From the NCBI RefSeq assembly GCF_039654945.1, contig NW_027361687.1, positions 27,714,001-27,778,000 on the forward strand: 64,000 nucleotides of DNA, given 5' to 3'. The position numbers and the translations under genes were made by a program. Source of the DNA: Dendrobates tinctorius. Lineage: Eukaryota. The notes under the pieces were generated by a model, which had not been told where the DNA came from, searched no databases, and saw nothing but the letters and a program-made list of their open reading frames with translations. This document shows positions 18,031-63,360 of this stretch, one piece after another (the stretch's first letter is position 1; each line of letters begins with the position of its first letter).

Positions 18031-18252
18031 TAATTTCTATGTCTGCCTATGGAATAGTTATGACCATACATTGGCTTATTATTGCATCATACTAAGCGTA
18101 GGATTAAGCTTACAGTCCAACCAAATTTATTGTACTTGAATTTAGGCACCCCTATTATACATGAAGTAGCCATGTGTTGGCTTGGCACCTTCATCAGGAG
18201 TCAGTTGCCTGATGAAGATGCCTTTGACCTTGATACAAATTAGTCTTCTCGT

Positions 18253-19302
18253 CTACATGCATGCAGCGCCGGGACAGTCGTCTCCTGTACATGCATGCAG
18301 CGCCGGAACAGTCGGCGCCTGTAATGCATGCAGCGCCGGAACAGTTGTCTCCTGTACATGCATGCAGCGCCAGAACAGTTGTCTCCTGTACATGCATGCA
18401 GCGCCGGAACAGTCGTCGCCTGTACATGCATGCAGCGACGGAGCAGTCGTCTCCTGTACATGCATGCAGCGCCGGAACAGTCGTCGCTTGTACATGCATG
18501 CAGCACCGGAACATTGTCGCCTGTACATGCATGCAGCACCGGAACATTGTCGCCTGTACATGCATGCAGCGCCGGAACATTGTCGCCTGTACATGCATGC
18601 AGCGCCGGAACAGTCGTCTCCTGTACATGCATGCAGCACCGGGACTGTCGTCTCCTGTACATGCATGCAGAGTCGGAACAGTCGTCTCCTGTACATGCAT
18701 GCAGCGCCGTAATAGTCGTCGCCTGTACATGCATGCAGCGCCTGGAACAGTCGTCGCCTGTACATGCATGCAGAGTCTGAACAGTTGTCTCCTTACACGC
18801 ATGCAGCGTCACAACTGTCGTTGCCTTTACATGCATGCAGCGCCTGGAACAGTCTGTCGCCTGTACATGCATGCAGCGCCTGGAACAGTCTGTCGCCTGT
18901 ACATGCATGCAGCGCCTGGAACAGTCTGTCGCCTGTACATGCATGCAGCGCCTGGAACAGTCTGTCGCCTGTACATGCATGCAGCGCCTGGAACAGTCTG
19001 TCGCCTGTACATGCATGCAGCGCCTGGAACAGTCTGTCGCCTGTACATGCATGCAGCGCCTGGAACAGTCTGTCGCCTGTACATGCATGCAGCGTCTGGA
19101 ACAGTCTGTCGCCTGTACATGCATGCAGCGCCTGGAACAGTCTGTCGCCTGTACATGCATGCAGCACCGGAACAGTTGTCGCCTGTACATGCATGCAGAG
19201 TCGAAACAGTCCACTCCTTTACATGCATGCAGCACTGGAGCAGTCATCGCTTTTACAAGCATGCAGCACCGGAACAGTCGTCGCCTGTACATGCATGCAG
19301 CA
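18253..19302. repeat. Minisatellite, ~33-36 bp unit (TACATGCATGCAGCGCC(T)GGAACAGTC(T)GTCGCCTG), ~30 copies
   Basis: Direct tandem periodicity; homogeneous 36-mer block ~18830-19160. Confidence 0.95.
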
Positions 19303-19689
19303 CAAATCTTAGTGCAATGATCAAATGCAATATCAGATCAGCACCATATATAGTTGTATTGCTTAAACCTACAATTCCATTATGTCCTTAACAATGGTAA
19401 GGAGATACTTGGAGATGTTGTTTCCAGCCATCATCAGACTTTGGAGCATAAAGGAACCCTAGTACTGATGAGACGTAGACAGTATCACAAACATTTATAT
19501 TCAGGTATCTTTATATGTGACCTCTTCTGTTTGTTTTCATGATGAGTTTTCATACCTGAAGCTCATCTCTGCAGACTTCCCTCTTCTCCATCTTCAACAA
19601 CACATCTCGTCCCCATAAATAATCTCCAATGCTGTGCTCATGAATAAATAATTGCCATTCACTGTGTTTACTGCATAAAATATTCCACC

Positions 19690-20766
19690 CTTCTCCTAAT
19701 GTCCCTTCTACACTGCCCTCTCCATAATGTCCCTTCTACACTGCCCTCTCCATAATATCCCTTCCACACTGCCCTCTCCTAATGTCCCTTCCACACTGCT
19801 CTCCATAATATCCCTTCCACACTGCCCTCCATAATATCCCTTCCACACTGCCCTCCATAATATCCCTTCCACACTGCCCTCCATAATATCCCTTCCACAC
19901 TGCCCTCCATAATATCCCTTCCACACTGCCCTCCATAATATCCCTTCCACACTGCCCTCCATAATATCCCTTCCACACTGCCCTCCATAATATCCCTTCC
20001 ACACTGCCCTCTCCTAATGTCCCTTCCACACTGCCATCCATAATATCCCTTCCACACTGCCCTCTCCATATTATCCCTTCCACACTGCCCTCTCCATAAT
20101 ATCCCTTCCACACTGCCCTCTCCATATTATCCCTTCCACACTGCCCTCTCCATATTATCCCTTCCACACTGCCCTCTCCATAATATCCCTTCCACACTGC
20201 CCTCTCCATAATATCCCTTCCACACTGCCCTCTCCTAATGTCCCTTCCACACTGCCCTCTCCTAATGTCCCTTCCACACTGCCCTCTCCTAATGTCCCTT
20301 CCACACTGCCCTCTCCTAATGTCCCTTCCACACTGCCCTCTCCATAATGTCCCTTCCACACTGCCCTCTCCATAATGTCCCTTCCACACTGCCCTCTCCA
20401 TAATATCCCTTCCACACTGCCCTCCATAATATCCCTTCCACACTGCCCTCTATAATATCCCTTCCACACTGCCCTCTCCATAATATCCCTTCCACACTGC
20501 CCTCTCCTAATGTCCCTTCCACACTGCCCTCTCCTAATGTCCCTTCCACACTGCCATCCATAATATCCCTTCCACACTGCCCTCTCCATATTATCCCTTC
20601 CACACTGCCCTCTCCATAATATCCCTTCCACACTGCCCTCTCCATATTATCCCTTCCACACTGCCCTCTCCATATTATCCCTTCCACACTGCCCTCTCCT
20701 AATGTCCCTTCCACACTGCCCTCTCCTAATGTCCCTTCCACACTGCCCTCTCCATAATATCCCTTC
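19690..20766. repeat. Minisatellite, 26-28 bp unit (CCCTTCCACACTGCCCT(CT)CCATAATAT), ~39 copies
   Basis: Direct tandem periodicity; strong C-rich strand skew. Confidence 0.95.
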
Positions 20767-20989
20767 CGTGCCTCACTACTCCAATATGTCTCCTCACACA
20801 CTTTCCTTCTTCCATAATGGATTCCACAAACTGCCCCTTTGCCATAATGTCCCACCACCTTCCCCTCTCCAGAATATCTCGCCCACATTGCCTTTCTGTA
20901 TAAAGTACCGCTACCCCACTGCCCCTTGCTATACTATGGACTCTTTAACAACCTCCCTTTAATTGTCCCATAATTTGCTCTTACAATAA

Positions 20990-33386: not shown

Positions 33387-34514
33387 CCGTATTCTTCGCT
33401 TTATAAGACGCTCCAGATTATAACACGCACCCCAAATTTTTAGGAGAAAAAAAAGAAATTTATTTATTTTTTTTAATAAAATGGTGGTGCTTTTTATAAT
33501 CCATGCATCAACTTATTGCTTACCGGGGGTGGTGGCTGGGGTGAAGCGGGGTCCCATGGTCGCTGCTGGAGGAGGCAGGAGAGGAGTGCTGCTGCAGGGT
33601 GAGATGAGGTGCTGTCCAATGTGCAGTGCGCCGCTGCGGGTGTCCGATGCTGCAGGTGTCCCCAGAGGCACTGCTGCCCGGGGTCTCTGCTGCTTTTGCT
33701 GCCCGGGGTCTCTGCTGCTGTTGCTGCCAGGGGTCTCTGCTGCTGTTGCTGCCAGGGGTCTCTGCTGCTGTTGCTGCCAGGGGTCTCTGCTGCTGTTGCT
33801 GCCAGGGGTCTCTGCTGCTGTTGCTGCCAGGGGTTTCTGCTGCTTTTGCTGCCAGGGGTCTCTGCTGCTTTTGCTGCCAGGGGTATCTGGCGCTGCTGCC
33901 CGGGGTCTCTGCTGCTGCTGCCCGCCGCTGCCCAGAGTGTCCGAGGCCGCCACTGCTTGGGATTTCGGCTGCTGCTGCCTGCCGCCGCTGCCCGGGATAT
34001 ACGCCGCTGCAGGGGGCTCTGTCGACATTTCTTGAAAGACCAGAGCCCCCTGGAAGTTCCGCAGTTTCAGCCTGTGCGTGTGGACTCCAGTAAAATGGCT
34101 GCCGACGCATGCGCAGATGGAGATCTCAGCATGGAGATGAGGATGAGATCTGAGCACTGAAATCTCATGTCCCGAGATTTTCGTCTGCGCTTGCACAGGA
34201 GGAAACCACAGAGCTGCCGGGGCGGCTCTGGCCTTTCACGAAATGTCGGCAGAGCCCCCCCTCCCGCAGCGACGGACATCCCGAGCAGTGGCGGTAGCGG
34301 ACGCGAACACCCTGGGCAGCAGCAGCGGACATCTCAGGCAGCGGCGGCGGGCAGCAGCAGCGCGACGGCAGCGCACACCCCCTCATCCCAGTCTGCAGCT
34401 ACGGTATGGGTAAGCGGAAACTGGTATATTGGCTTTGTAAGACGCACTCCCATTCCCCCCCCCCCCCCAAATTTGGGGTAAAAAAAAGTACGTCTTACAA
34501 AGCGAAAAATAAGG
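33387..34514. mobile_element. pogo/Tc2-like non-autonomous element with internal 25-bp minisatellite
   Basis: TA-CCGTATTCTTCGCTTTATAAGACG...CGTCTTACAAAGCGAAAAATAAGG-TA; GCTGCCAGGGGTCTCTGCTGCTGTT repeats at ~33670-33920. Confidence 0.78.
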
Positions 34515-36511: not shown

Positions 36512-37722
36512 GTCGGTTTACTTTACTTACACTAACTTGGAAGGGTTGTGGCGTAAACTCCGTCAGCCATTATTGTGTCCTGCGCTCGTCATCCCTGCAG
36601 CCTGATTAACTTGGTTTTAAGCGGACATGTCATTGTGCGCCCATGTTCTGCACCTCCTCTGCACTCGGTGTGACAGGCACATCTCAGATCCCGTTGTAAT
36701 TCCCAGTAGTAACTTAACAGATGTACACATGGTCCATATTTTCCTCTAACACTGTACGACCTCTTGTTGTGGCTCTGGTGTTCAAGGACTGAAGATTGCA
36801 CTATTCTTGCAGACTTTAATGGCAGGAAATCATTAGCAACTCCCCTACTCAGTTTTTAGAGATCATTGTGGATTTCTAAGTATTGCTGGTACTTACTTAT
36901 TATAGTGCTCTCTCTTATTATCTTCATTCCCTTTTGGAACATCCACCTAATGTTGCCCAGTTTAATGGACACACATGCTTAGTAGATCCTAATGACCTCA
37001 GATGGCAGACTGACTCCTGCCGTCACTCAGGACAGCCAATAGGAAGCTGCCTTTTCCCATTCTGGACGGGACGTCAACACTCGGAGTGAGCACACTAGCC
37101 CCGGCGAAACCATGACTAGTCCCCAATGCAACACTGTCAGATGATTGGAAGGTTGTGCATCCTGTTGAAGGATCGAGTGTCCTCTGTTCACTCTACACAC
37201 CTTTCACTCTACTTTTCCACAATGACAAGTCCACTTTAATCAACTAATATCATAAATAACAATTTAATTTTTTATTCATATTTTATTTGTATTTTTATGT
37301 TTCATGCTTCAGTTCACAAAAGTTCATTCCTAACGATGGCTAAAGGAAAACCCGTTGCATGGAAAGTGTATTTTATCCTGCAGGCTTCATGGGCTGAGCA
37401 GATTCATGTATGGTTTTATGGGCATAAATTCTGCATGGTTTATTATTTATCGATCTCAACATCTGCCTATTTTGGGCTTACAGACCACGGGGTGGTCCTA
37501 CAGCAATTAGTTTTGTCAGTCACTCAATAGGACCAAATAGAAAGAAATAGCCAGCTCACCAGAGATCAAGCGCAGAAACTCGGAGCTCCGTGCGGACCAA
37601 CGTCATAGACCATAGAAGGAAAGTTCTGCTCCAGCTGCTATTAAAATCTTCTTTAATGAAAAACCATTAAAACATACAATGGTGAAGACTCTCCATATAA
37701 CCTCACCACAACAGAGATGACA

Positions 37723-37759
37723 GGCTACGCGTTTCGACCAGACGGTCTTTGTCAAAGCC
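37723..37759 (-). ncRNA. Mirror copy of the U3-A8 hammerhead motif
   Basis: Reverse complement of 45586-45622. Confidence 0.62.
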
Positions 37760-39779
37760 ATGTTTGAAATTTGCCTTAGATTAGACATATTATGTAGCTT
37801 AACGAATAAAACATCATATAAAAATCACATGATCACATGAGCCAATCCAATTGGACACATGTAATTAAATACAAAAGCGACATAGAGAGAAAAAAAAAAA
37901 AAAAAGTTTTTTTTCCTCTTTTGAGAAAAAAAAAAAAAAAAGGGGAAATTCAACAATAGTGCAACAATAGATCATGTCTTTTATTGAAACCGTTTGGATG
38001 TCTAGTATTTAAAAATGGTATATCCAAAATGCTTCCCGAGTAAGGAGACATCGCCTGATGTCTCCCCCACGGGATGACAGGTTTACTTTTTCTATTCCCT
38101 GAACTTTAAGGTGTGATGTATTGCGGACATGGCAATCAATAAAATGTTTGGAAACTGCTGAGACATTCCGTATAAAATTATTTGTATTGCTAATATCATT
38201 TAAATGTTCCCTTATTCTTATTTTTAGCTGCCTCGAGGTGCAACCAACATAGGATAAATCACATTGTTCACAATTAATTTTATTCACTATGTTGCTAGAA
38301 TTGCAATTGATATAATTTTTTATTTTAAAACATGAAGTATGATCATTATTAGTGAATTCCTGAGAAATTTGGGCATATTTGCATATTTTACAAATGTTAG
38401 CACCACATTTGTAAAAGCCCTTCACCGTTAACCAGTTTTCTTTAGGCTTGTGATGTGTTAGTGAAAACATGCTGGGGGATAATATACTCCCTAAAGACGG
38501 TGCTTTTCTTGACACCACATTAATTCCTGATGATAAAAAATTTTAACCAATTCATTATCCTGGTGCAGAATGGGTAGAAACTTGTGAACAATATTTTTTA
38601 TAGATGTGAATTGCGGGCTATACTGGAAACATATATAGGGTTTTTTTCCCATAGTTATTGCCTTTTTTTTCCCTTCTGTGCTTGATGCCAGCAAGTCATT
38701 TCAATCTTTGGTTTGCACTATTTTTTGTGCTCTAGTTAGGGTCCATTTTGGATAATTGCGATTTGTCAATTTATTGGTAACATGTGCAAATTCCTCTTGC
38801 AAGGATTCCTCTGAGCTGCAATTACGTTTAACTCTGGTGTATTCACCAACAGGGACTGACCTGATTGTATGTTTTGAATGACTGCTCCTTGCATGTAGCA
38901 CCGTGTTCCCACTGTATGGTTTATGGTGCGTTTTGGTATGAATGACCGCACCATCTGTGCCACTCAAACACAAATCCAGAAATGCAATATTGTTAGAACT
39001 GTAGTTATACGTGAATTTGATATTATAGTTATTAGAATTAATATATTTTATGAAATCTGGTATGGCAGAAATATCTCCACCCCAAATAATGAGGGTATCA
39101 TCGATATATCTACCATACCAGATTAATTGCTTTGAAAAAGGGTTGGCAGTGGAATATATATATTCCATTTCCCAGAATGACATTACAAGATTTGCAAGGG
39201 AGGGTGAGAATTTAGCTCCCATTGCAACTCCTCTAAGTTGCAAAAAAAATTCTCCATTGAACGTGAAGAAATTATGTGACATAAGAAATGCAACTACTTG
39301 TAGAATGTAATTTTGCAGCTCAGATGAAAAATTGCTGTATTTGACAAAATGGAATTGTAATGCTCGTATGGCTATATCATGGAAAATGCACGTGTATAAT
39401 GAAATAACATCACAAGTTAGCCAACTATATTTGGATGACCAAGTTTTTTTGGAGAATGCCCCCAAAACCTGTTTGGAGTCCCTGATGTATCCCGGGGTGC
39501 GCTGCACTAAAGGATGTAACAGCGAATCTACCCACTGACATAAATGCTCATTATTTGAGCCAATGCCCGATACTATTGGGCGCAAAGGTGGAATACCCTC
39601 AGATTTATGGATTTTGGGGACCCCATGTATTATTGGCAAAATGGGATTTTTTACCTCCAAGTATTCTGCTTGACTAGCTGTTAAAATCCCCAAACTGGAA
39701 CTTTCCTTTATTAGAGCACTACTTATTTCCTTAAATCTTATTGACGGGTTATGCGGTAGTTTTTTATAGATGGTACTTA

Positions 39780-40266
39780 GGCCGGTTTCACATTAGCGCT
39801 TTTTAAGCGCACGCACGGCCGGGGGTAGCTCCGCCCCCGAGCCGGCTCTCTGCCCGGCGTGCCCGCCCCTTGCTTGTAGCGCCGCCTCCTAGCGGACAGC
39901 GGCGCCTGCGATCGGCGCACCCTATCTTTAGCATAGGGTGCGCAGATCGTGCGCAGGCCGTGCGCTAGTTGCGCTTTGACCAGCGCTGCGCACTTTTGAC
40001 GGTGCGCCGTGCGCGCCAAAATCGAACTTTTCGGATTTTGGCGCGCACGGCGCACCGTCAATAGTGCGCAGCGCAGGTCAAAGCGCAACTAGCGCACGAT
40101 CTGCGCACCCTATGCTAAAGATAGGGTGCGCCGATCGCAGGCGCCGCTGTCCGCTAGGAGGCGGCGCTACAAGCAAGGGGCGGGCACGCCGGGCAGAGAG
40201 CCGGCTCGGGGGCGGAGCTACCCCCGGCCATGCGTGCGCTTAAAAAGCGCTAATGTGAAACCGGCC
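39780..40266. mobile_element. Palindromic Harbinger-type MITE (487 bp)
   Basis: TIR GGCCGGTTTCACATTAGCG; TTA/TAA flanks; absent at the equivalent site in the other PLE arm. Confidence 0.88.
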
Positions 40267-40359
40267 TAAGTCTGATAATAATTCCATCATTTTTTGAAAA
40301 TAATCAGTGGCATTCAATACCACTACCACTCCTCCCTTGTCTGACATTTTAATGACTAA

Positions 40360-41115
40360 GGCTAGTTTCACACTTGCTTTTTTTTGCAGCGCGTTTTTCC
40401 CGCAAAAAAACGCATTGAAAAAACGCATACAAAAGCATACAACTGCTGCGTTTTTTTTCAAGCATTTTTATGAGCATGCATGAAAAAAACGCAGCGTTTT
40501 TATGCGTTTGTATGCGTTTTTAGTGCGTTTTTACCGCGTTTGCGTTTTTTCCAACATTAGGTGGCCCCTCACACTAACCCAAACCATGACTTTACTAACC
40601 CTGACCCTAACCCTAACCCTTAACCAAACCATACTTAACCCAAACCCTAAACCCTAACTGACCCTAACCCTGACCCTAACCCTTAACCAAACCATACCCT
40701 GATCCTAACCCTAACCCTAAACCCCCTTAACTAACCCTAACTCTAACCCAAACCCCTAAATTCCATTGTCTAAACTAATGGTAAAAAAAAAAACGCATGT
40801 GCAAAAAAACGCGTACATAAGCATGCCAATGCGCACATATGCTCACCATAGACTTATAATGGGTGTCTTGCTGTAAAAAAAACGCATTGCGCGCGCATGC
40901 GTTTTTTTGAGGCAAGTCGGACGCTCAAAAAATGCAACAGGTTGCATTTTGTGCGCCCGAGCGCATACCGCAAAAAAACGCATGCGCGGTAAAACGCGTA
41001 CAAACGCATGTGTATGCGCACATAAGCGCATCCCATGCAAAGTATAGGGGAAAAAACGCATGCGCTATTTAGCGCTAAAATACAGCGAAAAAAAAACGCA
41101 AATGTGAAACCAGCC
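40360..41115. mobile_element. Harbinger-type MITE carrying telomere-like repeats
   Basis: TIR GGCTAGTTTCACA / TGTGAAACCAGCC; TAA TSD; AAAAACGCA motifs; degenerate (CCCTAA)n at ~40573-40760. Confidence 0.88.
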
Positions 41116-41669
41116 TAAATCAGCATTATTTTTCAAATCCTGCAGGATTTTGTGCTGATAATTTGAAAAATTTTTGTTGTTGTTTGATTTATCTTTGGAT
41201 TTCATTTGATCATATAAATGGAGCAAATCCCTCTCTACCATATCCTGAAATTGTTCCATGCAACTAGATCTCGTTTGGGTAAAAATACGGATTTTTTGTC
41301 TCAAAAGCATGTGTCTGTTCACATTGATCATTGCTGGAAAGGGAATGTTCATCTAGATCCTGCAGAGTAACCAGTGCTAACTGTTCCTCAAAATTCATGT
41401 CCACAGACTCATTGTTAGCATCTGAGGGGTGACTAGATAGAGGGACACAATCTGAATTATCAATGTCAAAAAAATGTTTTTTAACTGTCAAATTGCGAAT
41501 AAATTTATTAACGTCCATAATGGTGGAAAACAGATCAAAATCTCGATCAGGGACAAAATTGAGACCCAATGATAATATTTGGGTTTGTTCTTTGGTTAGG
41601 ATAGTTGAAGATAAATTGAGGACATTATTGCAGCTTTTTATTGGTGCCAATATTTTTTTCTCCGAGTTG

Positions 41670-42465
41670 GATGTTGCTAGAGACCGATCCAGAAAGGTTG
41701 CACAGGTGTTCTCTGATCCATCTAATCAGGGGGTGGCAGACCTAGACAAGAGTCTCAACAAATTTGAAAAGCTGCTTATATTGGAAACTAAAATCTGGTG
41801 GGATCATGCCACCTTAAATAACTATATTGCAAAGGACATGATACCAAGAGGTTTACGTATAAAAAAAACTGCCTACTACTGTTTACTCAGATGAGTTTAA
41901 AAATGAATGGAATGCTATATTGAGCAATTGTTCGGCAAATTTAATGAAATTAATAATAAAATATGAAGATCAGAAATTGAAGGAAATACAAGAGGAATTG
42001 AGTCTATTGAACATTTCAATGGTGGAATACAAAACATTACCACAATTTGACTCTTCAGTGACTGCTGTGAACAAAAAGGTGTCAACATTGGAAGATGAAA
42101 TTATGGATAGAAAGAAAAAAAAGTTCACAAGAGACTTGAATGACTATTCTACCAATATGGTGTATGAATGGGGAAAATGGAAGGGTCTAAATAGAACCCC
42201 AAAATCTATCTTGAAGCAAAGCCATGTTCACAATAAGCACAGAAACTCCACCAGAATTCCAAGATCTCATGTTTCCTTCACTTCATCAGAGTTGGATTCT
42301 TCTGACAATTTTTCAAGCATATCTGATGTTTCGTCTAATGAGATCACTCCAGGTGCGTCCAGACGTAATCTTCATTATTCAAAAAACGTCAGAGGTGTGG
42401 AGGCAGAAAACACCGGAGGAACACAAGGAATTACAACTCGTAGAAAAAAATATTGGCACCAATAA
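41670..42465 (+). pseudogene. PLE upstream ORF1 (coiled-coil rich), one extra A at ~41868
   Basis: KIWWDHATLNNYIAKDMIPRGLRIKK-[shift]-LPTTVYSDEFKNEWNAILSNCSANLMKLIIKYEDQKLKEIQEEL...KKFTRDLNDY; stop at 42463-42465. Confidence 0.75.
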
Positions 42466-45370
42466 AAAGCTGCAATAATGTCCTCAATTTATCTTCCATT
42501 ATTCTAACCAAAGAACAAACCCAAATATTATCATTGGGTCTCAATTTTGTCCCTGATCGAGATTTTGATCTGTTTTCCACCATTATGGACGTTAATAAAT
42601 TTATTCGCAATTTGACAGTTAAAAAACATTTTTTTGACATTGATAATTCAGATTGTGTCCCTCTATCTAGTCACCCCTCAGATGCTAACAATGAGTTTGT
42701 GGACATGAATTTTGAGGAACAGTTAGCACTGGTTACTCTGCAGGATCTAGATGAACATTCCCTTTCCAGCAATGATCAATGTGAACAGACACATGCTTTT
42801 GAGACAAAAAATCCGTATTTTTACCCAAACGAGATCTAGTTGCATGGAACAATTTCAGGATATGGTAGAGAGGGATTTGCTCCATTTATATGATCAAATG
42901 AAATCCAAAGATAAATCAAACAACAACAAAAATTTTTCAAATTATCAGCACAAAATCCTGCAGGATTTGAAAAATAATGCTGATTTAGTCATTAAAATGT
43001 CAGACAAGGGAGGAGTGGTAGTGGTATTGAATGCCACTGATTATTTTCAAAAAATGATGGAATTATTATCAGACTAAGTACCATCTATAAAAAACTACCG
43101 CATAACCCGTCAATAAGATTTAAGGAAATAAGTAGTGCTCTAATAAAGGAAGGTTCCAGTTTGGGGATTTTAACAGCTAGTCAAGCAGAATACTTGGAGG
43201 TAAAAAATCCCATTTTGCCAATAATACATGGGGTCCCCAAAATCCATAAATCTGAGGGTATTCCACCTTTGCGCCCAATAGTATCGGGCATTGGCTCAAA
43301 TAATGAGCATTTATGTCAGTGGGTAGATTCGCTGTTACATCCTTTAGTGCAGCGCACCCCGGGATACATCAGGGACTCCAAACAGGTTTTGGGGGCATTC
43401 TCCAAAAACACTTGGTCATCCAAATATAGTTGGCTAACTTGTGATGTTATTTAATTATACACGTGCATTTTCCATGATATAGCCATACGAGCATTACAAT
43501 TCCATTTTGTCAAATACAGCAATTTTTCATCTGAGCTGCAAAATTACATTCTACAAGTAGTTGCATTTCTTATGTCACATAATTTCTTCACGTTCAATGG
43601 AGAATTTTTTTTGCAACTTAGAGGAGTTGCAATGGGAGCTAAATTCTCACCCTCCCTTGCAAATCTTGTAATGTCATTCTGGGAAATGGAATATATATAT
43701 TCCACTGCCAACCCTTTTTCAAAGCAATTAATCTGGTATGGTAGATATATCGATGATACCCTCATTATTTGGGGTGGAGATATTTCTGCCATACCAGATT
43801 TCATAAAATATATTAATTCTAATAACTATAATATCAAATTCACGTATAACTACAGTTCTAACAATATTGCATTTCTGGATTTGTGTTTGAGTGGCACAGA
43901 TGGTGCGGTCATTCATACCAAAACGCACCATAAACCATACAGTGGGAACACGGTGCTACATGCAAGGAGCAGTCATTCAAAACATACAATCAGGTCAGTC
44001 CCTGTTGGTGAATACACCAGAGTTAAACGTAATTGCAGCTCAGAGGAATCCTTGCAAGAGGAATTTTCACATGTTACCAATAAATTGACAAATCGCAATT
44101 ATCCAAAATGGACCCTAACTAGAGCACAAAAAATAGTGCAAACCAAAGATTGAAATGACTTGCTGGCATCAAGCACAGAAGGGAAAAAAAAGGCAATAAC
44201 TATGGGAAAAAAACCCTATATATGTTTCCAGTATAGCCCGCAATTCACATCTATAAAAAATATTGTTCACAAGTTTCTACCCATTCTGCACCAGGATAAT
44301 GAATTGGTTAAAATTTTTTATCATCAGGAATTAATGTGGTGTCAAGAAAAGCACCGTCTTTAGGGAGTATATTATCCCCCAGCATGTTTTCACTAACACA
44401 TCACAAGCCTAAAGAAAACTGGTTAACGGTGAAGGGCTTTTACAAATGTGGTGCTAAGGCTGGTTTCATATTAGCGCTTTTTAAGCGCACGCACGGCCGG
44501 GGGTAGCTCCGCCCCCGAGCCGGCTCTCTGCCCGGCGTGCCCGCCCCTTGCTTGTAGCGCCGCCTCCTAGCGGACAGCGGCGCCTGCGATCGGCGCACCC
44601 TATCTTTAGCATAGGGTGCGCAGATCGTGCGCAGGCCGTGCGCTAGTTGCGCTTTGACCTGCGCTGCGCACTTTTGACGGTGCGCCGTGCGCGCCAAAAT
44701 CAAACTTTTCGGATTTTGGCGCGCACGGCGCACCGTCAAAAGTGCGCAGCGCAGGTCAAAGCGCAACTAGCGCACGATCTGCGCACCCTATGCTAAAGAT
44801 AGGGTGCGCCGATCGCAGGCGCCGCTGTGCACTAGGAGGCGGCGCTACAAGCAAGGGGCGGGCACGCCGGGCAGAGAGCCGGCTCGGGGGCGGAGCTACC
44901 CCCGGCCGTGCGTGCGCTTAAAAAGCGCTAATGTGAAACCAGCCTAACATTTGTAAAATATGCAAATATGCCCAAATTTCTCAGGAATTCACTAATAATG
45001 ATCATACTTCTTGTTTTAAAATAAAAAATTATATCAATTGCAATTCTAGCAACATAGTGAATAAAATTAACTGTGAACAATGTGATTTATCCTATGTTGG
45101 TTGCACCTCGAGGCAGCTAAAAATAAGAATAAGGGAACATTTAAATGATATTAGCAATACAAATAATTTTATACGGAATGTCTCAGCAGTTTCCAAACAT
45201 TTTATTGATTGCCATGCCCGCAATACATCACACCTTAAAGTTCAGGGAATAGAAAAAGTAAACCTGTCATCCCGTGGGGGAGACATCAGGCGATGTCTCC
45301 TTACTCGGGAAGCATTTTGGATATACCATTTTTAAATACTAGACATCCAAGCGGTCTCAATAAAAGACAC
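42381..45370 (+). pseudogene. PLE ORF2 (RT, GIY-YIG), disabled, interrupted by a MITE
   Basis: NLSSIILT...LSLGLNFVP, SDKGGVVVV, PKIHK...PLRPIVSG, RYIDD, YKCGANICKIC, YVGCT; several stops and frameshifts. A mirror copy lies at ~37975-41669 (-). Confidence 0.88.
44458..44944. mobile_element. Palindromic Harbinger-type MITE (487 bp), same family as 39780
   Basis: TIR GGCTGGTTTCA.ATTAGCG; TAA TSD (44455-44457, 44945-44947). Confidence 0.9.
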
Positions 45371-45585
45371 GATCTATTGTTGCACTATTGTTGAATTTCC
45401 CCTTTTTTTTTTTTTTCCTCAAAAGAGGAAAAAAAACCTTGTTTTTTTTTGTTTTTTTCTATGTCACTTTTGTATTTAATTACATGTGTCCAATTGGATT
45501 GGCTCATGTGATCATGTGATTTTTATATGATGTTTTATTCGTTAAGCTACATATATATGTCTAATCTAAGGCAAATTTCAAACAT

Positions 45586-45622
45586 GGCTTTGACAAAGAC
45601 CGTCTGGTCGAAACGCGTAGCC
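45586..45622 (+). ncRNA. Hammerhead ribozyme-like motif in PLE pLTR, U3-A8 variant
   Basis: GGC-U-UUGACAA-A-GACC(gucu)GGUC-GAAAC-GC-GUA-GCC; one extra U before the core. Confidence 0.62.
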
Positions 45623-46453
45623 TGTCATCTCTGTTGTGGTGAGGTTATATGGAGAGTCTTCACCATTGTATGTTTTAATGGCTTTTCATTAAAGAAGATT
45701 TTAATAGCAGCTGGAGCAGAACTTTCCTTCTATACTCAATAGGACCGCCCACTGGACTCCTAAATCCCAAACTAGCACAGTTTAGGATTAATACATGACA
45801 AGTTATACCGAATCTGTTCCCTCAAAACTGCAAATAAATCTGGTCACTTTTCTAATGTGACAGGTTCCCCTTACAGTAGATCTGTCATCAGGTTTTACAA
45901 CACGGTGAAAACAGACCTGATAAGGCTGGTGTACTTATTCAAATTCTCCAATTAAAATGAGCATTTTTTGAGTCCAGCTAGAGATGGATTCTTCAAATGG
46001 TCATTTTAGTATTATGCAGGAAAAGTTTCACACAGGTTTATATAGCAATGGATTTTTCACAATAAGTACACCAGCCTCACCAGGTCTAACTATTTATTAA
46101 CTTGACATTTTGTGTTGTGTAATCTGAACGCTCTTCTGCACAGGTTTGCACATATAAGCATATGAGAGACTAGAGGTTAAACTTTTATGTTCACCCTAAA
46201 TATTCATCAACATAGTGTCTGTAATCTGAGAATGTAGAATCTACCATCTTTTATTAGGCATTTAGCTATGCAAATTTTTCTTTTTAGTGAAGATACATAA
46301 AAGCATCAAAAAAAATAACAAAGGTATATTGCAAAGATGTTGGATTTTACAAGTGCTGTCATCGCCAGTGCTAGATAGCTGTGAATCTGCTTTAGCCTCA
46401 ACCATTGTAAAAATAAGTTTTGAAGCATCTGACAACCTGCTAGAAAACTATGA

Positions 46454-46558
<105 letters not shown>

Positions 46559-53278: not shown

Positions 53279-56036
53279 ATGGACGAGCCGGAAACTCCCG
53301 TGGCCCAGCTGGACCGAGAGCAGGAATGTACATCAGAGAGGTCCCAAACCAGCTCCCAGCAAAAGAAAAAACGAACTGGACAATCTGGCCATAGAAGTTC
53401 CTCCAGGCCGAAGGATCCAGCTCGCCCCCCCGTGATCCAGTACCTACGCCTTCTGCTCAGGGTAAGAGATCTTCGTGAATGTGCCCTGATGCAGTGTTCC
53501 CCTTATGTTTTCATCCTATAGGGGAAGAAATGCGCTGACAAGGCAAAAAACAGGGAATGCGCCCTTTGCAAATGCCCCTTGCCAGATGCCTACCCTAAAA
53601 GGTGTAGACCAGGGGTCCTTAAACTTTTTAAACGGGGCCAGATTTCGGTCCCTCGGACCGTTGGAGGGCCGTAATATAGTTTAAAAAAATTATGACTAAA
53701 TTCCTGTGCACACTGCACATATCTTATTTAGTAGTAATAAAACAAAAATAGGAACAAATACAATATTAAAAATGAAGTTAAATCATCAAACCGATTTTTT
53801 GGGTTCTTCGAATATCCTACACTTCGAGTCAATTTTTTCTCTTTCTTGATATCATTGTTTCCTAGGGATTCAAAATTGCTATTAGTAAAATACCAACATA
53901 TATACAGCGCTACAAAAACAATATACCAGCAATAAAACTGCCAACACAGAGACATGCAGCCTGATCAGTGCCCATCAATGCAGTCTGATCAGTGCCCATC
54001 AATGCAGTCTGATCAGTGCCCATCAATGCAGCCTGATCAGTGGCTATCAATGCAGCCTCACCAGTGCCCATATTGGTGGAACTCCACTTTTACCTCAGGC
54101 TCAGACTGGTGTGGTGCAAGAATGCAGCATAGGTCCCCAATAGACTGGTAAATGTCCCCAATAGGCAGCACAGGTCCCCAATAGGCAGGTAAATGTCCCC
54201 AATAGGCAGCACAGGTCCCCAATAGGCAGCACAGGTCCCCAATAGGCAGGTAGATGTCCCCATTAGGCAGATAAATGTCCCCAATAGGCAGGTAAATGTC
54301 CCCATTAGGCAGCACAGGTCCCCATTAGGCAGGAAAATGTCCCCAATAGGTAGCACAGGTCCCCACTAGGCAGAAAAATGTCCCCAATAGGTAGCACAGG
54401 TGCCCACTAGGCAGGAAAATGTCCCCAATAGGTAGCATAGGTCCCCACTAGGCAGAACAATGTCCCCAATAGGTAGCACAGGTCCCCACTAGGCAAAAAA
54501 AGGCCCCAATAGGAAGGAAAATGTCCCCACTAGGCAGAACAATGACCCCAATAGGACCCGGCATTAAAAAAAAAAAAAAATGTACTCACCTATGTCCCCC
54601 GCTGCTCTGAAGAGGCGCCCGCTCATCTCCGTCTTCTTCCTGCATAGGCACACAGGCGGCGTGACATCATCAGACCGCGCAGGCGGCGTGATGACAATCA
54701 CGTCGTCTCTGTGCACTGTGCTGCGGGAGGGCTGCGTAACGCCTTTCCTCGGCGCCTCGTCCCGCCCGCAATTACACGGCCCGCCGGCACTGAACTGCAG
54801 TGCAGTTCATGAGCTCAAAGTCGGCCTGGCCAGAGGCCGGATAAAAGTCTTTGGAGGGCCGCAGTTTGAGGACCCCTGGTGTAGACGGTGGCGGAAGAAA
54901 CCCCTGACTTCGCTACAAGTCTAAGGGAAATTATCAGGATGGAGGTTAAAGCCCTAAAATCCGTACCCCAGGGGGAGGCGTCTAGGAAGAGAAAGAGAGC
55001 AAGTTTCTCAGGGTCAGGCTCTTCAGCTGACCCTAGAGGAAATGAAGACTCCTCAGAACCCTCTATCTCCGTGTCTGCGTTCTCTTCAGAGGAAGACGCC
55101 AGTCGTTTCTGCCTAGGTCTGGAACAAGTGGACAAACTAGTTAAGGCAGTCAAGGCTACCATGGGGGTAACAGACACAAAACCAGAACTGTCAGCGCAAG
55201 ACCTAATGTTCGGGGGTTTCGACCCCAGGAAACGTAAGTCGTTCCCGTTAAACGACAAGGTCCAAAATTTGATTAATAGAGAATGGAGGAAACTAGAAAG
55301 GAAAGGCTCCCTACCACCAGCTTTTAAACGGCGATATCCCTTTGAGGACCCCATGGTAAATAAATGGGTCAAAGCCCCGAAATTGGATGCAGCAGTGGCT
55401 AAGGCGTCCAAAAAATCCGCTATCCCCTTTGATGACATGGTCTCTTTAAAGGATACGCTGGATAAAAAGGCGGACTCCTACTTGAAAGGCACATGGGAAA
55501 TGTCAGCTGGCGCCCTGAGACCGGCAGTAGCAGCTACCTGCGCAGCCAGATCTTTGATGGTCTGGCTGGACCAGCTGGAAACGCAGTTAGAGGACAGAGC
55601 CTCGAGGGAGTCTATCTTGAAAACCCTACCTATCATCCAGAATGCGGCAGCCTTTTTAGCCGACGCTTCGGCAGATTCCGCAAGAATGGCGGCCAAGGCC
55701 GCAGGGCTATCAAATGCAGACCGACGGGCTGTATGGCTGAAATGCTGGCCCGGGGATATGCAGGCCAGATCCTGGCTTTGCTCCATCCCGTGTGAGAGGG
55801 AATATCTATTTGGACCAGTCCTAGATCAACTGGAGAAGACAGACAACGATAAAAAGAAATTCCCTTCCCTGCCCACCCCTTCCTATAGATGTCCCTTTGC
55901 TAGGAAGAGATTTTTTCGGAGGAGGTCATCCAGGGACCGAGGCAGATGGGAAGATAAAAAGAAAAAAGGTACCGGGTTTATGTTTGGAGGGGGACGCCAG
56001 GAAGCATCCCGTGAGACCAAGAAACCCCCCCAATGA
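53279..56036 (+). pseudogene. DIRS gag-like ORF1, interrupted by a hAT element
   Basis: N-terminal MDEPETP..., ECALCKCPL zinc-finger half before the hAT insertion, then 54888-56036 with FKRRYPF...PKLDAAVAK...LKDTLDKKAD...LFGPVLD. Confidence 0.8.
53610..54878. mobile_element. hAT (Charlie-like) non-autonomous element with internal minisatellites
   Basis: TIR CAGGGGTCCT.AAACT; perfect 8-bp TSD GTGTAGAC (53602-53609, 54879-54886); ~21-bp repeats at 53954-54070 and 54130-54555. Confidence 0.9.
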
Positions 56037-62357: not shown

Positions 62358-63360
62358 CAGGGATACCAAACTCAAATACACACAGAGGGCCAAATTAAAA
62401 ACTTGGAAAAAGTCGCAGGCCAACCTTGATATCAATTAAAAAAATGTTTACAATTGAGGAAGTTTTTCCTTATCCTAAAATATAATAATGAAACCTTTCA
62501 TATGCAAACAAACTTAAAGGGGTTGTCCTAAAGAGTACGTTTTACTTAATAGATTTTAGAATAAAATAAACACGTAATCACAAATGGAGCATACTGGAAT
62601 AATGTAGTATGCTATGTAAGAGCAGCAAAAAGCTTATGACCTAATTTAAGTATGTAATGACAAAGGATAAAAAATCTAGAATTCGTAAATAATACAGATA
62701 ATAAAGTATGATGCGATGCCCAAAGGGCCCCCAAACAGAGTATGATACCCCCACAGTGAATTTCTCCACAGTACCCTCCACACGCATGACATGATGACCC
62801 ATACCCCCCCAAAGTATTGTGACCTCTACACTGTCTGATGCCTCAACTGTGATCCCCTCCACATAGTATAATGGACTCCACATAGTCTTCCATATAGAAT
62901 AATGGGCTCCACATAGTTGTCCATACAGTATAATGGAGCCCTTATAGTATTCCATACAGTATAATGGCCCCACATAGTCCTCCTCCATACAGTATAATGG
63001 CCTCCACATAGTCCTCCATACAGAATAATGGCCTCCACATAGTCCTCCATACAGAATAATGGCCTCCACATAGTCCTCCATACAGACTAATGGGCCCCAC
63101 ATAGTTGTTCATACAGTATAATGGGCCCCACATAGTCCTCCATACAGACTAATGGGCCCCACATAGTCCTCCATACAGCATAATGGACACCACATAGTTC
63201 TCCATACAGACTAATGGGTCCCACATTGTCCTCCATATAGAACAATATGCCCCACATAGTCCTCCATGCTGTATGATGGGGGGCCAATGCCGGCCTCGCA
63301 GGACAAATAAAATCACCCTGCGGGCAGATTTGGCTCTCTGGCCAGAGTTTGACATGTGTG
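62358..63360. mobile_element. hAT non-autonomous element with internal ~32-bp minisatellite
   Basis: Perfect 8-bp TSD ATCTAGAG (62350-62357, 63361-63368); termini CAGGGATACCAAACTC / GAGTTTGACATGTGTG; CCACATAGTCCTCCATACAG.ATAATGG repeats at 62855-63265. Confidence 0.85.

Follow-up and report, generated by a model that had tools for sequence, protein, structure and literature searches.

The window analysed here is the whole 64,000-nt stretch G000:C19:27714001-27778000 of the 6.36-Gb Dendrobates tinctorius assembly, the genome that was also searched for related copies. It holds a dead copy of a multi-copy Penelope-like element (PLE) with a C-terminal GIY-YIG nuclease. The main arm of the element spans 41668-45733 (+) and lies alongside an inverted, 5′-truncated second copy at 37535-41669 (−), the mirror arm, which two insertions split into segments 41115-41669, 40266-40359 and 37535-39780. 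ORF1 (41668-42465, +; stop codon at 42463-42465, +) encodes 265 aa in intact family copies, with a helical N-terminal 160 aa and a disordered, Ser-rich basic tail. ORF2 (42381-45360, +) comprises a reverse transcriptase (RT) with YIDD at 43746-43757, a CX4CX2C linker finger and a GIY-YIG-type endonuclease (EN) with CCHH. The RT region begins in the −1 frame relative to ORF1 with an NLSS...GLNFVP motif (42486-42554, +), upstream of the first Met of that frame at 42585.

Both reading frames of the window copy are damaged. In ORF1, the inversion junction with the mirror arm interrupts the start codon, and an A-run near 41861 has gained a base; ORF2 is broken by in-frame stops, small indels and one insertion. 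The small indels of the copy lie at 41861, 42826, 43075 and near 44200-44320, and the insertion is a MITE-like inverted-repeat element (44454-44947, unstranded) that splits the linker finger and has a second copy at 39775-40271 in the mirror arm. This 0.5-kb GC-rich element, with arms of ~176 nt, is thus present in both PLE arms, at element positions ~1.4 kb apart. The other mirror-arm insertion, at 40360-41114, has inverted repeats of the AAAACGCA type and, at 40594-40770, a degenerate TAACCC-like array. Elsewhere in the window, self-comparison revealed tandem repeat arrays at 18242-19303, 19683-20924, 33672-33921, 54124-54556 and 62858-63267.

The 3′ end of the element (45573-45733, +) is a pseudo-LTR, the same stretch being found upstream of ORF1 in intact copies. 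Within it we predict a minimal hammerhead-like motif with a U3-A8 core and a palindromic helix III (45590-45618, +, and 37727-37755, −); a U3-A8 minimal hammerhead is described in the available part of PMC4209133. Rfam returned no family at its threshold within 37000-46500, and the hammerhead-like motif was not matched. The RVT_1 match to the window element (E 4.6e-05) falls below Pfam's cut-off, and Pfam gave no match on the nuclease of the window copy; YIDD and the nuclease motifs were identified by direct reading of the sequence. In a shallow word-index search, the closest proteins to the element's product carry Pfam RT and GIY-YIG entries, and the nearest named homologs of its proteins come from frogs. 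The finger between RT and nuclease conforms to the CX2-5CxxC pattern (CGANICKIC in the mirror arm), which excerpts of PMC8557442 give as common to Neptune, Nematis and Naiad. The RT with its C-terminal GIY-YIG nuclease and CCHH is that of an endonuclease-bearing (EN+) PLE, as are the pseudo-LTR with its hammerhead-like motif and the partial tandem/inverted structure. The single ORF of such elements, on the other hand, is missing: the family and its clade have two frames with a −1 offset.

At the junction of these frames, ORF1 reads TCA AAA AAC, and the predicted frameshift site is the slippery heptamer A_AAA_AAC in ORF1 phase at 42381-42387 (+), 75 nt upstream of the ORF1 stop. The −1 frame is closed 12 nt ahead of the heptamer by TAA (42366-42368, +), a stop kept in 39 of the 40 other copies compared. 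It then reads KKRQRCGGRKHRR and runs into the NLSS...GLNFVP motif. All of this agrees with the initial annotation, as does the finding that TAG at 42441-42443 (+) is the sole −1-frame interruption before the motif. The mirror-arm counterpart of this TAG is GAG at 41660-41662, a change silent in ORF1, from which an open ancestral −1 frame had been proposed.

A DNA search for the window's own family gave 41 matches including the window itself, from 40 of 197 candidates scored, and all 40 others were compared. GAG stands at 42441 in every one of them, which bears out the open ancestral frame and marks the TAG as specific to the window copy. Since the TAG is absent from all 40, the family has a separate, helical ORF1 of 265 aa, with the RT and GIY-YIG nuclease in the −1 frame relative to it. 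The heptamer is intact in 35 of the 40, the exceptions being two C>T changes, one A>G, one A>C and one deletion of the C. A family form with seven A's, in which a single ORF would have lost one base in the window copy, was not found: seven A's occur in none of the 40. Two one-base indels were found in the overlap among these copies; both are deletions, and neither yields a single ORF. The two frames overlap by 94 nt in the window family. Both frames are open in several natural copies, L003, L012 and L016 among them: ORF1 over 265 aa and the −1 frame over at least 594 aa. The latter has no Met before residue 72, which lies past the NLS..GLNFVP motif. The transframe peptide had been read from the window copy as KKRQRC; this does not hold for the family, whose version is KKRQRRGGRKH. 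A second in-phase run, A_AAA_AAA (42444-42450, +), occurs in the window family and was considered as a slippery site, but it is missing from most sister families and was rejected.

To find sister families, we searched the genome with three ORF1 homologs from a protein database rather than with the heptamer (the shallow word-index protein searches had given 1, 3 and 5 matches). From the P0002 and P0003 searches we took 100 loci, namely the top 60 and 40 lower-ranked ones hand-picked for variety; two of them represent the same place and nine belong to the window's own family. ORF1 of the sister families is ~30-65% identical. The RT frame was −1 with an overlap of at least 60 nt at 83 loci and −1 with a shorter overlap at 2, while 10 loci had frame 0, 3 had frame +1 and 2 had no ORF2 match. 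Among the 83 overlapping loci, 75 carry in-phase A_AAA_AAC, 6 carry A_AAA_AAT and 2 neither, so that conservation of the heptamer in sister families, as A_AAA_AA(C/T), extends to 81 of 83. Elsewhere in these elements in-phase A_AAA_AAC occurs twice per 10,687 codons, giving a chance expectation of ~1% per overlap, and AAC makes up only 24% of their Asn codons. The 82 heptamer-bearing loci fall into 24 clusters at 85% identity, with a median pairwise DNA identity of 57%; the cluster count is conditional on the presence of the heptamer, and because the families are kin, the 24 clusters do not amount to 24 independent trials. An independent set was obtained with an RT protein named from Xenopus. 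It comprised 25 loci, 8 of them without ORF1 or the N-terminal motif; of the 17 parsed, 15 are −1 and 13 of these have the heptamer, the other two having new stops behind it.

Complete two-ORF copies also exist (L186 and L187), with ORF2 of 851 and 855 aa containing RT, linker finger and nuclease; open ORF2 frames of young copies span 800-855 aa. The ORF1 stop is particular to each family and follows the heptamer by 63-120 nt. As for the frame-0 loci, L138 is a lone one-base insertion: 39 other copies of its family are one base shorter, and all eight of its parsed siblings are −1 with the heptamer. Four more of the ten (L066, L124, L146 and L155) have −1 siblings next to them. Overall, ORF1 and ORF2 have become fused in single natural copies at L124, L138, L146, L150, L155, L066 and L203 by the insertion of one base within or close to the slippery region; the fused L138, one of 40 in its family, and L146 have open frames of more than 1,040 aa. 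In another group of loci (L065, L125, L129 and L191-L197), the overlap contains A_AAA_AAC twice in phase, at a spacing of 21 or 39 nt. Close relatives of these double-site families keep the first site only, which suggests turnover of the slippery site.

Conservation of the −1 frame begins at the heptamer. Across 19 representatives with standard spacing, mean pairwise identity of the −1 frame is 0.15 before the heptamer, where the frame is unconserved and often closed by stops, and 0.54 after it. The ORF1 frame over the same post-heptamer bases is only 0.37 identical. From the heptamer onward the −1 frame carries a conserved basic motif, KKRxRRxGRKH, encoded in the window by the dual-coding stretch 42381-42416 (+). 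The heptamer sits 3-57 nt after the −1 frame opens, and this position near the opening is kept although the distance to GRKH is 21, 24, 42, 45 or 54 nt depending on the family. No Met precedes the NLS..GL.F.P motif in 23 of 24 representatives, the exception being L134, with a Met in the overlap. Such a pattern is what entry of translation into the −1 frame at the heptamer would be expected to leave. In terms of the features of programmed −1 frameshifting, the heptamer is in phase, inside the overlap and conserved, and the downstream frame is open and conserved from the heptamer with no start of its own.

The initial annotation had also put forward a stimulatory stem, GGTGT/ACACC (42394-42398 with 42410-42414, +). 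This part of the proposal did not survive: the stem is perfect in the window copy alone. Position 42396 is C in all 40 other copies, and the stem is thus a private mutation of the window copy. The C places a C·A mismatch in mid-stem, changing the energy of the isolated hairpin from −4.7 kcal/mol in the window to −1.8 kcal/mol, and the central pair of the helix fails to form in 20 of 21 representatives of the families. RNAalifold returned no base pair on the 21 A_AAA_AAC families. For the annotated helix, as for a second, long-range one, 64% of cells are paired and covariation is not significant; a simple scan of the A_AAA_AAC group for pseudoknots gave no enrichment (mean z −0.18). In one family a change looked compensatory, but the alignment showed a shifted register. 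Just downstream of the heptamer, 21 of 24 families have a folding z below zero; the mean is only −0.93, compared with −0.71 for a control window placed 150 nt farther along; the region from the window family folds no better than shuffles (z 0.03). In the A_AAA_AAC group the predicted downstream folds are only weak and family-specific, and a conserved stimulator was not found.

A second two-ORF lineage in the same genome uses U_UUU_UUA (L265, L272 and L277-L301, e.g., G000:C51:20570760-20571210). The run is present in 24 of its 25 loci, which are 75-100% identical; of the 21 parsed, 19 are −1, and 17 have the heptamer inside the overlap. Ten close copies share a consensus stem from 9 nt downstream, with little covariation: a two-sided change is seen in only 1 of 19 pairs. 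The downstream stem of this lineage is longer.

In a related clade of the same genome the ORF1 domain is fused into one frame of 1021-1025 aa, counted from the first stop-bounded residue. ORF1 is 31% identical to the N-terminus of these single-ORF elements over 155 aa (E 6e-24). Judged by this match, ORF1 is the homolog of the N-terminal domain in single-ORF relatives and not an added gene. The heptamer was found in the linker of none of the nine single-ORF elements examined out of 11. Single-ORF relatives are abundant in the genome, and since a large sister clade runs on a single ORF, free ORF1 is not required by all relatives. An RT tree of 21 rows sets the A_AAA_AAC families apart from the rest (100/99) and places the U_UUU_UUA lineage as sister to the single-ORF clade, whose monophyly is supported at 84/89. 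An earlier, quick and unrooted version gave the same split; both trees were built without reference Neptune, Nematis or Poseidon elements. One change of state is enough on the tree, and the single ORF appears derived with one long-branch outgroup. Because this root is weak, we treat the direction of change between one and two ORFs as a hypothesis.

The ORF1 protein was modeled with AlphaFold2 (mean pLDDT 70.6). The model has long helices at residues 21-55, 75-121 and 127-161 and a disordered tail, and the modeled helices are in line with a coiled coil. ORF1 matched no Pfam family and no PDB fold at E 0.001. From its position, helices and basic tail, we infer that it may be a particle or RNA-binding protein.

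Traces of the same sites can be followed in proteins from beyond this genome. An ORF1 profile search detected 2,370 proteins at E 0.001, and peptide footprints were counted in the best 150 of these plus P0002, after 37 two-ORF-type and 13 single-ORF-type rows had been dropped owing to a missing anchor motif or tail length. Fusion to the NLS motif occurs in 1 two-ORF-type versus 21 single-ORF-type proteins of the best 150 plus P0002. K-N, the dipeptide read by ORF1 through A_AAA_AAC, lies 18-45 residues from the end in 34 of 49 stand-alone two-ORF-type ORF1 homologs (9.9 expected) as against 6 of 29 single-ORF-type proteins (5.2 expected). F-L, the U_UUU_UUA footprint, is present in 5 of 49 and 5 of 29, respectively, with 0.9 expected in each. 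These are footprints in peptides, without DNA: K-N is exemplified by Ranitomeya imitator XP_069609164.1 and Ascaphus truei XP_075450962.1, with Engystomops also among the named sources, and F-L by Ascaphus MEE6469807.1 and XP_075456773.1. Several PLE ORF1 proteins (P0010, P0108, P0137 and P0139) are listed in frog annotations as uncharacterised host proteins.

Taken as a whole, the junction layout is real and clade-wide, and it is strongly suggestive of a programmed frameshift. Very probably, RT-EN is made as an ORF1-RT-EN fusion by programmed −1 ribosomal frameshifting on A_AAA_AAC. Tandem tRNA slippage would take place with Lys in the P site and Asn in the A site, giving ...YSK(N/K)RQRRGGRKH.... 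Most ribosomes would terminate 75 nt past the heptamer and release free ORF1, presumably an abundant RNA-binding or oligomeric particle protein. A minority would slip back one base and yield, as a minor product, a fusion of ~1,080 aa, close in size to the fused single-ORF relatives. This is the scheme of the initial annotation less its stem: the checks on the genome for a seven-A form, for sister families and for splicing went in its favor, and the stimulatory stem did not. Contigs from four runs (kind unrecorded; at most three samples, two studies) span the junction with no indel or joint, contigs being a form of data that drops rare forms; the end of one such contig is what we take to be a cDNA template-switch oligo. 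We weigh these contigs neither in favor of the scheme nor against it.

The same frames would be joined if RNA polymerase slipped on the six-base run and added one A (or U), producing an edited, single-frame mRNA, and single genomic copies with a seven-A run do exist (L124, L138 and L155). We nonetheless regard such transcriptional slippage as improbable. The runs are only six long, and copies with seven A's are rare in the three families with siblings seen (1 of 40 for L138). Moreover, both lineages retain the full X_XXY_YYZ in ORF1 codon phase, and this phase matters to tRNAs, not to the polymerase.

A splice joining ORF1 to the −1 frame is less probable still. There is a donor-like CAG/GTGCGT at 42350-42358, and PLE introns are described in a part of PMC8557442. 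However, we found no common splice acceptor across families: from the −1 stop to the heptamer, 8 of 24 representatives, the window family included, contain no AG at all, and the purine-rich overlap has no pyrimidine tract. Conservation of the −1 peptide starts right at the heptamer, which splicing would give no reason to keep. A similarly slight chance attaches to separate translation of ORF2, by internal initiation or by re-initiation past the ORF1 stop. These are routes used by two-ORF non-LTR elements, and the L134 family has its Met within the overlap. Yet the other 23 representatives have no Met ahead of NLS..GL.F.P, residue 72 is the first in the window family, and both the heptamer and the conserved KKRxRRxGRKH would be left unexplained. 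Least likely is decay or an assembly artefact, in which a single-ORF element mobilised in trans lost one base in its A-rich basic block: single-ORF relatives are plentiful and the A-rich KR blocks of Naiad PLEs are described in excerpts of PMC8557442 as prone to frameshift mutation, but this reading is already contradicted by the family counts, with the −1 offset shared by dozens of families on an RT branch of their own, an ORF1 stop particular to each family 63-120 nt past the heptamer, and young copies with ORF2 open over 800-855 aa.

Programmed frameshifting on the heptamer has close parallels in retroviruses, where A_AAA_AAC (MMTV gag-pro) and U_UUU_UUA (HIV-1 gag-pol) are classic sites. 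The same heptamer forms stand here in the phase of the upstream ORF, and an upstream, presumably structural ORF is followed by an enzyme in the −1 frame. Unlike these systems, the frog element is not a virus or an LTR element, its ORF1 matched Gag in neither Pfam nor structure searches, and the A_AAA_AAC group has no conserved stimulatory stem or pseudoknot. Among PLEs, canonical EN+ elements are called single-ORF in the accessible part of Craig et al. 2021 (PMC8557442), and excerpts of PMC6431247, with which those of PMC13159263 and PMC6515669 agree, divide PLEs into elements of one ORF with EN and of two ORFs without it. The Neptune clade in particular is described as single-ORF in the same part of PMC8557442, whereas in the frog family the N-terminal domain forms an ORF1 of its own, and RT-EN follows a conserved slippery heptamer in the −1 frame. 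By layout, a coiled-coil ORF1 upstream of a PLE RT resembles Athena/Terminon and the two-ORF Coprina elements as presented in sections of PMC6431247 and PMC13159263; those elements, however, lack the C-terminal nuclease and sit at telomeres, while the frog family carries the nuclease. The Fig. 1 legend of PMC8557442 indicates that, in animal PLE types, a frameshift with a pseudoknot can set ORF1 apart; in the frog A_AAA_AAC group no pseudoknot was found. Our literature searches turned up no description of programmed frameshifting in any EN+ PLE, and the available portions of PMC3846280 and PMC5408684 contain nothing on the subject; older PLE papers and Repbase/Dfam may bear on novelty.

A broader scenario can be offered tentatively, as a possibility that we consider less likely to be right than wrong. 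In it, −1 frameshifting would be ancestral in frog, and perhaps many animal, Neptune-type PLEs, with A_AAA_AAC and U_UUU_UUA persisting and the single-ORF form being a later fusion. ORF1 would be an unrecognised particle-forming protein, and A_AAA_AAC would work without conserved RNA structure, via either the dual-coding stretch with its many basic residues or an RNA element to which ORF1 binds.

The absence of a conserved stimulator makes the A_AAA_AAC site useful as a test case for recoding, and the co-existence in one genome of young intact two-ORF, second-heptamer and fused single-ORF families provides a natural series bearing on the purpose of the frameshift. The two-ORF layout would also account for many stand-alone, uncharacterised frog proteins of 250-320 aa and for RT models missing their N-terminus. 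If a conserved, clade-wide −1 frameshift is indeed in use, EN+ PLEs would regulate the ratio of structural protein to enzyme in a retrovirus-like manner, and a role for free ORF1 in the poorly understood PLE replication cycle would become testable.
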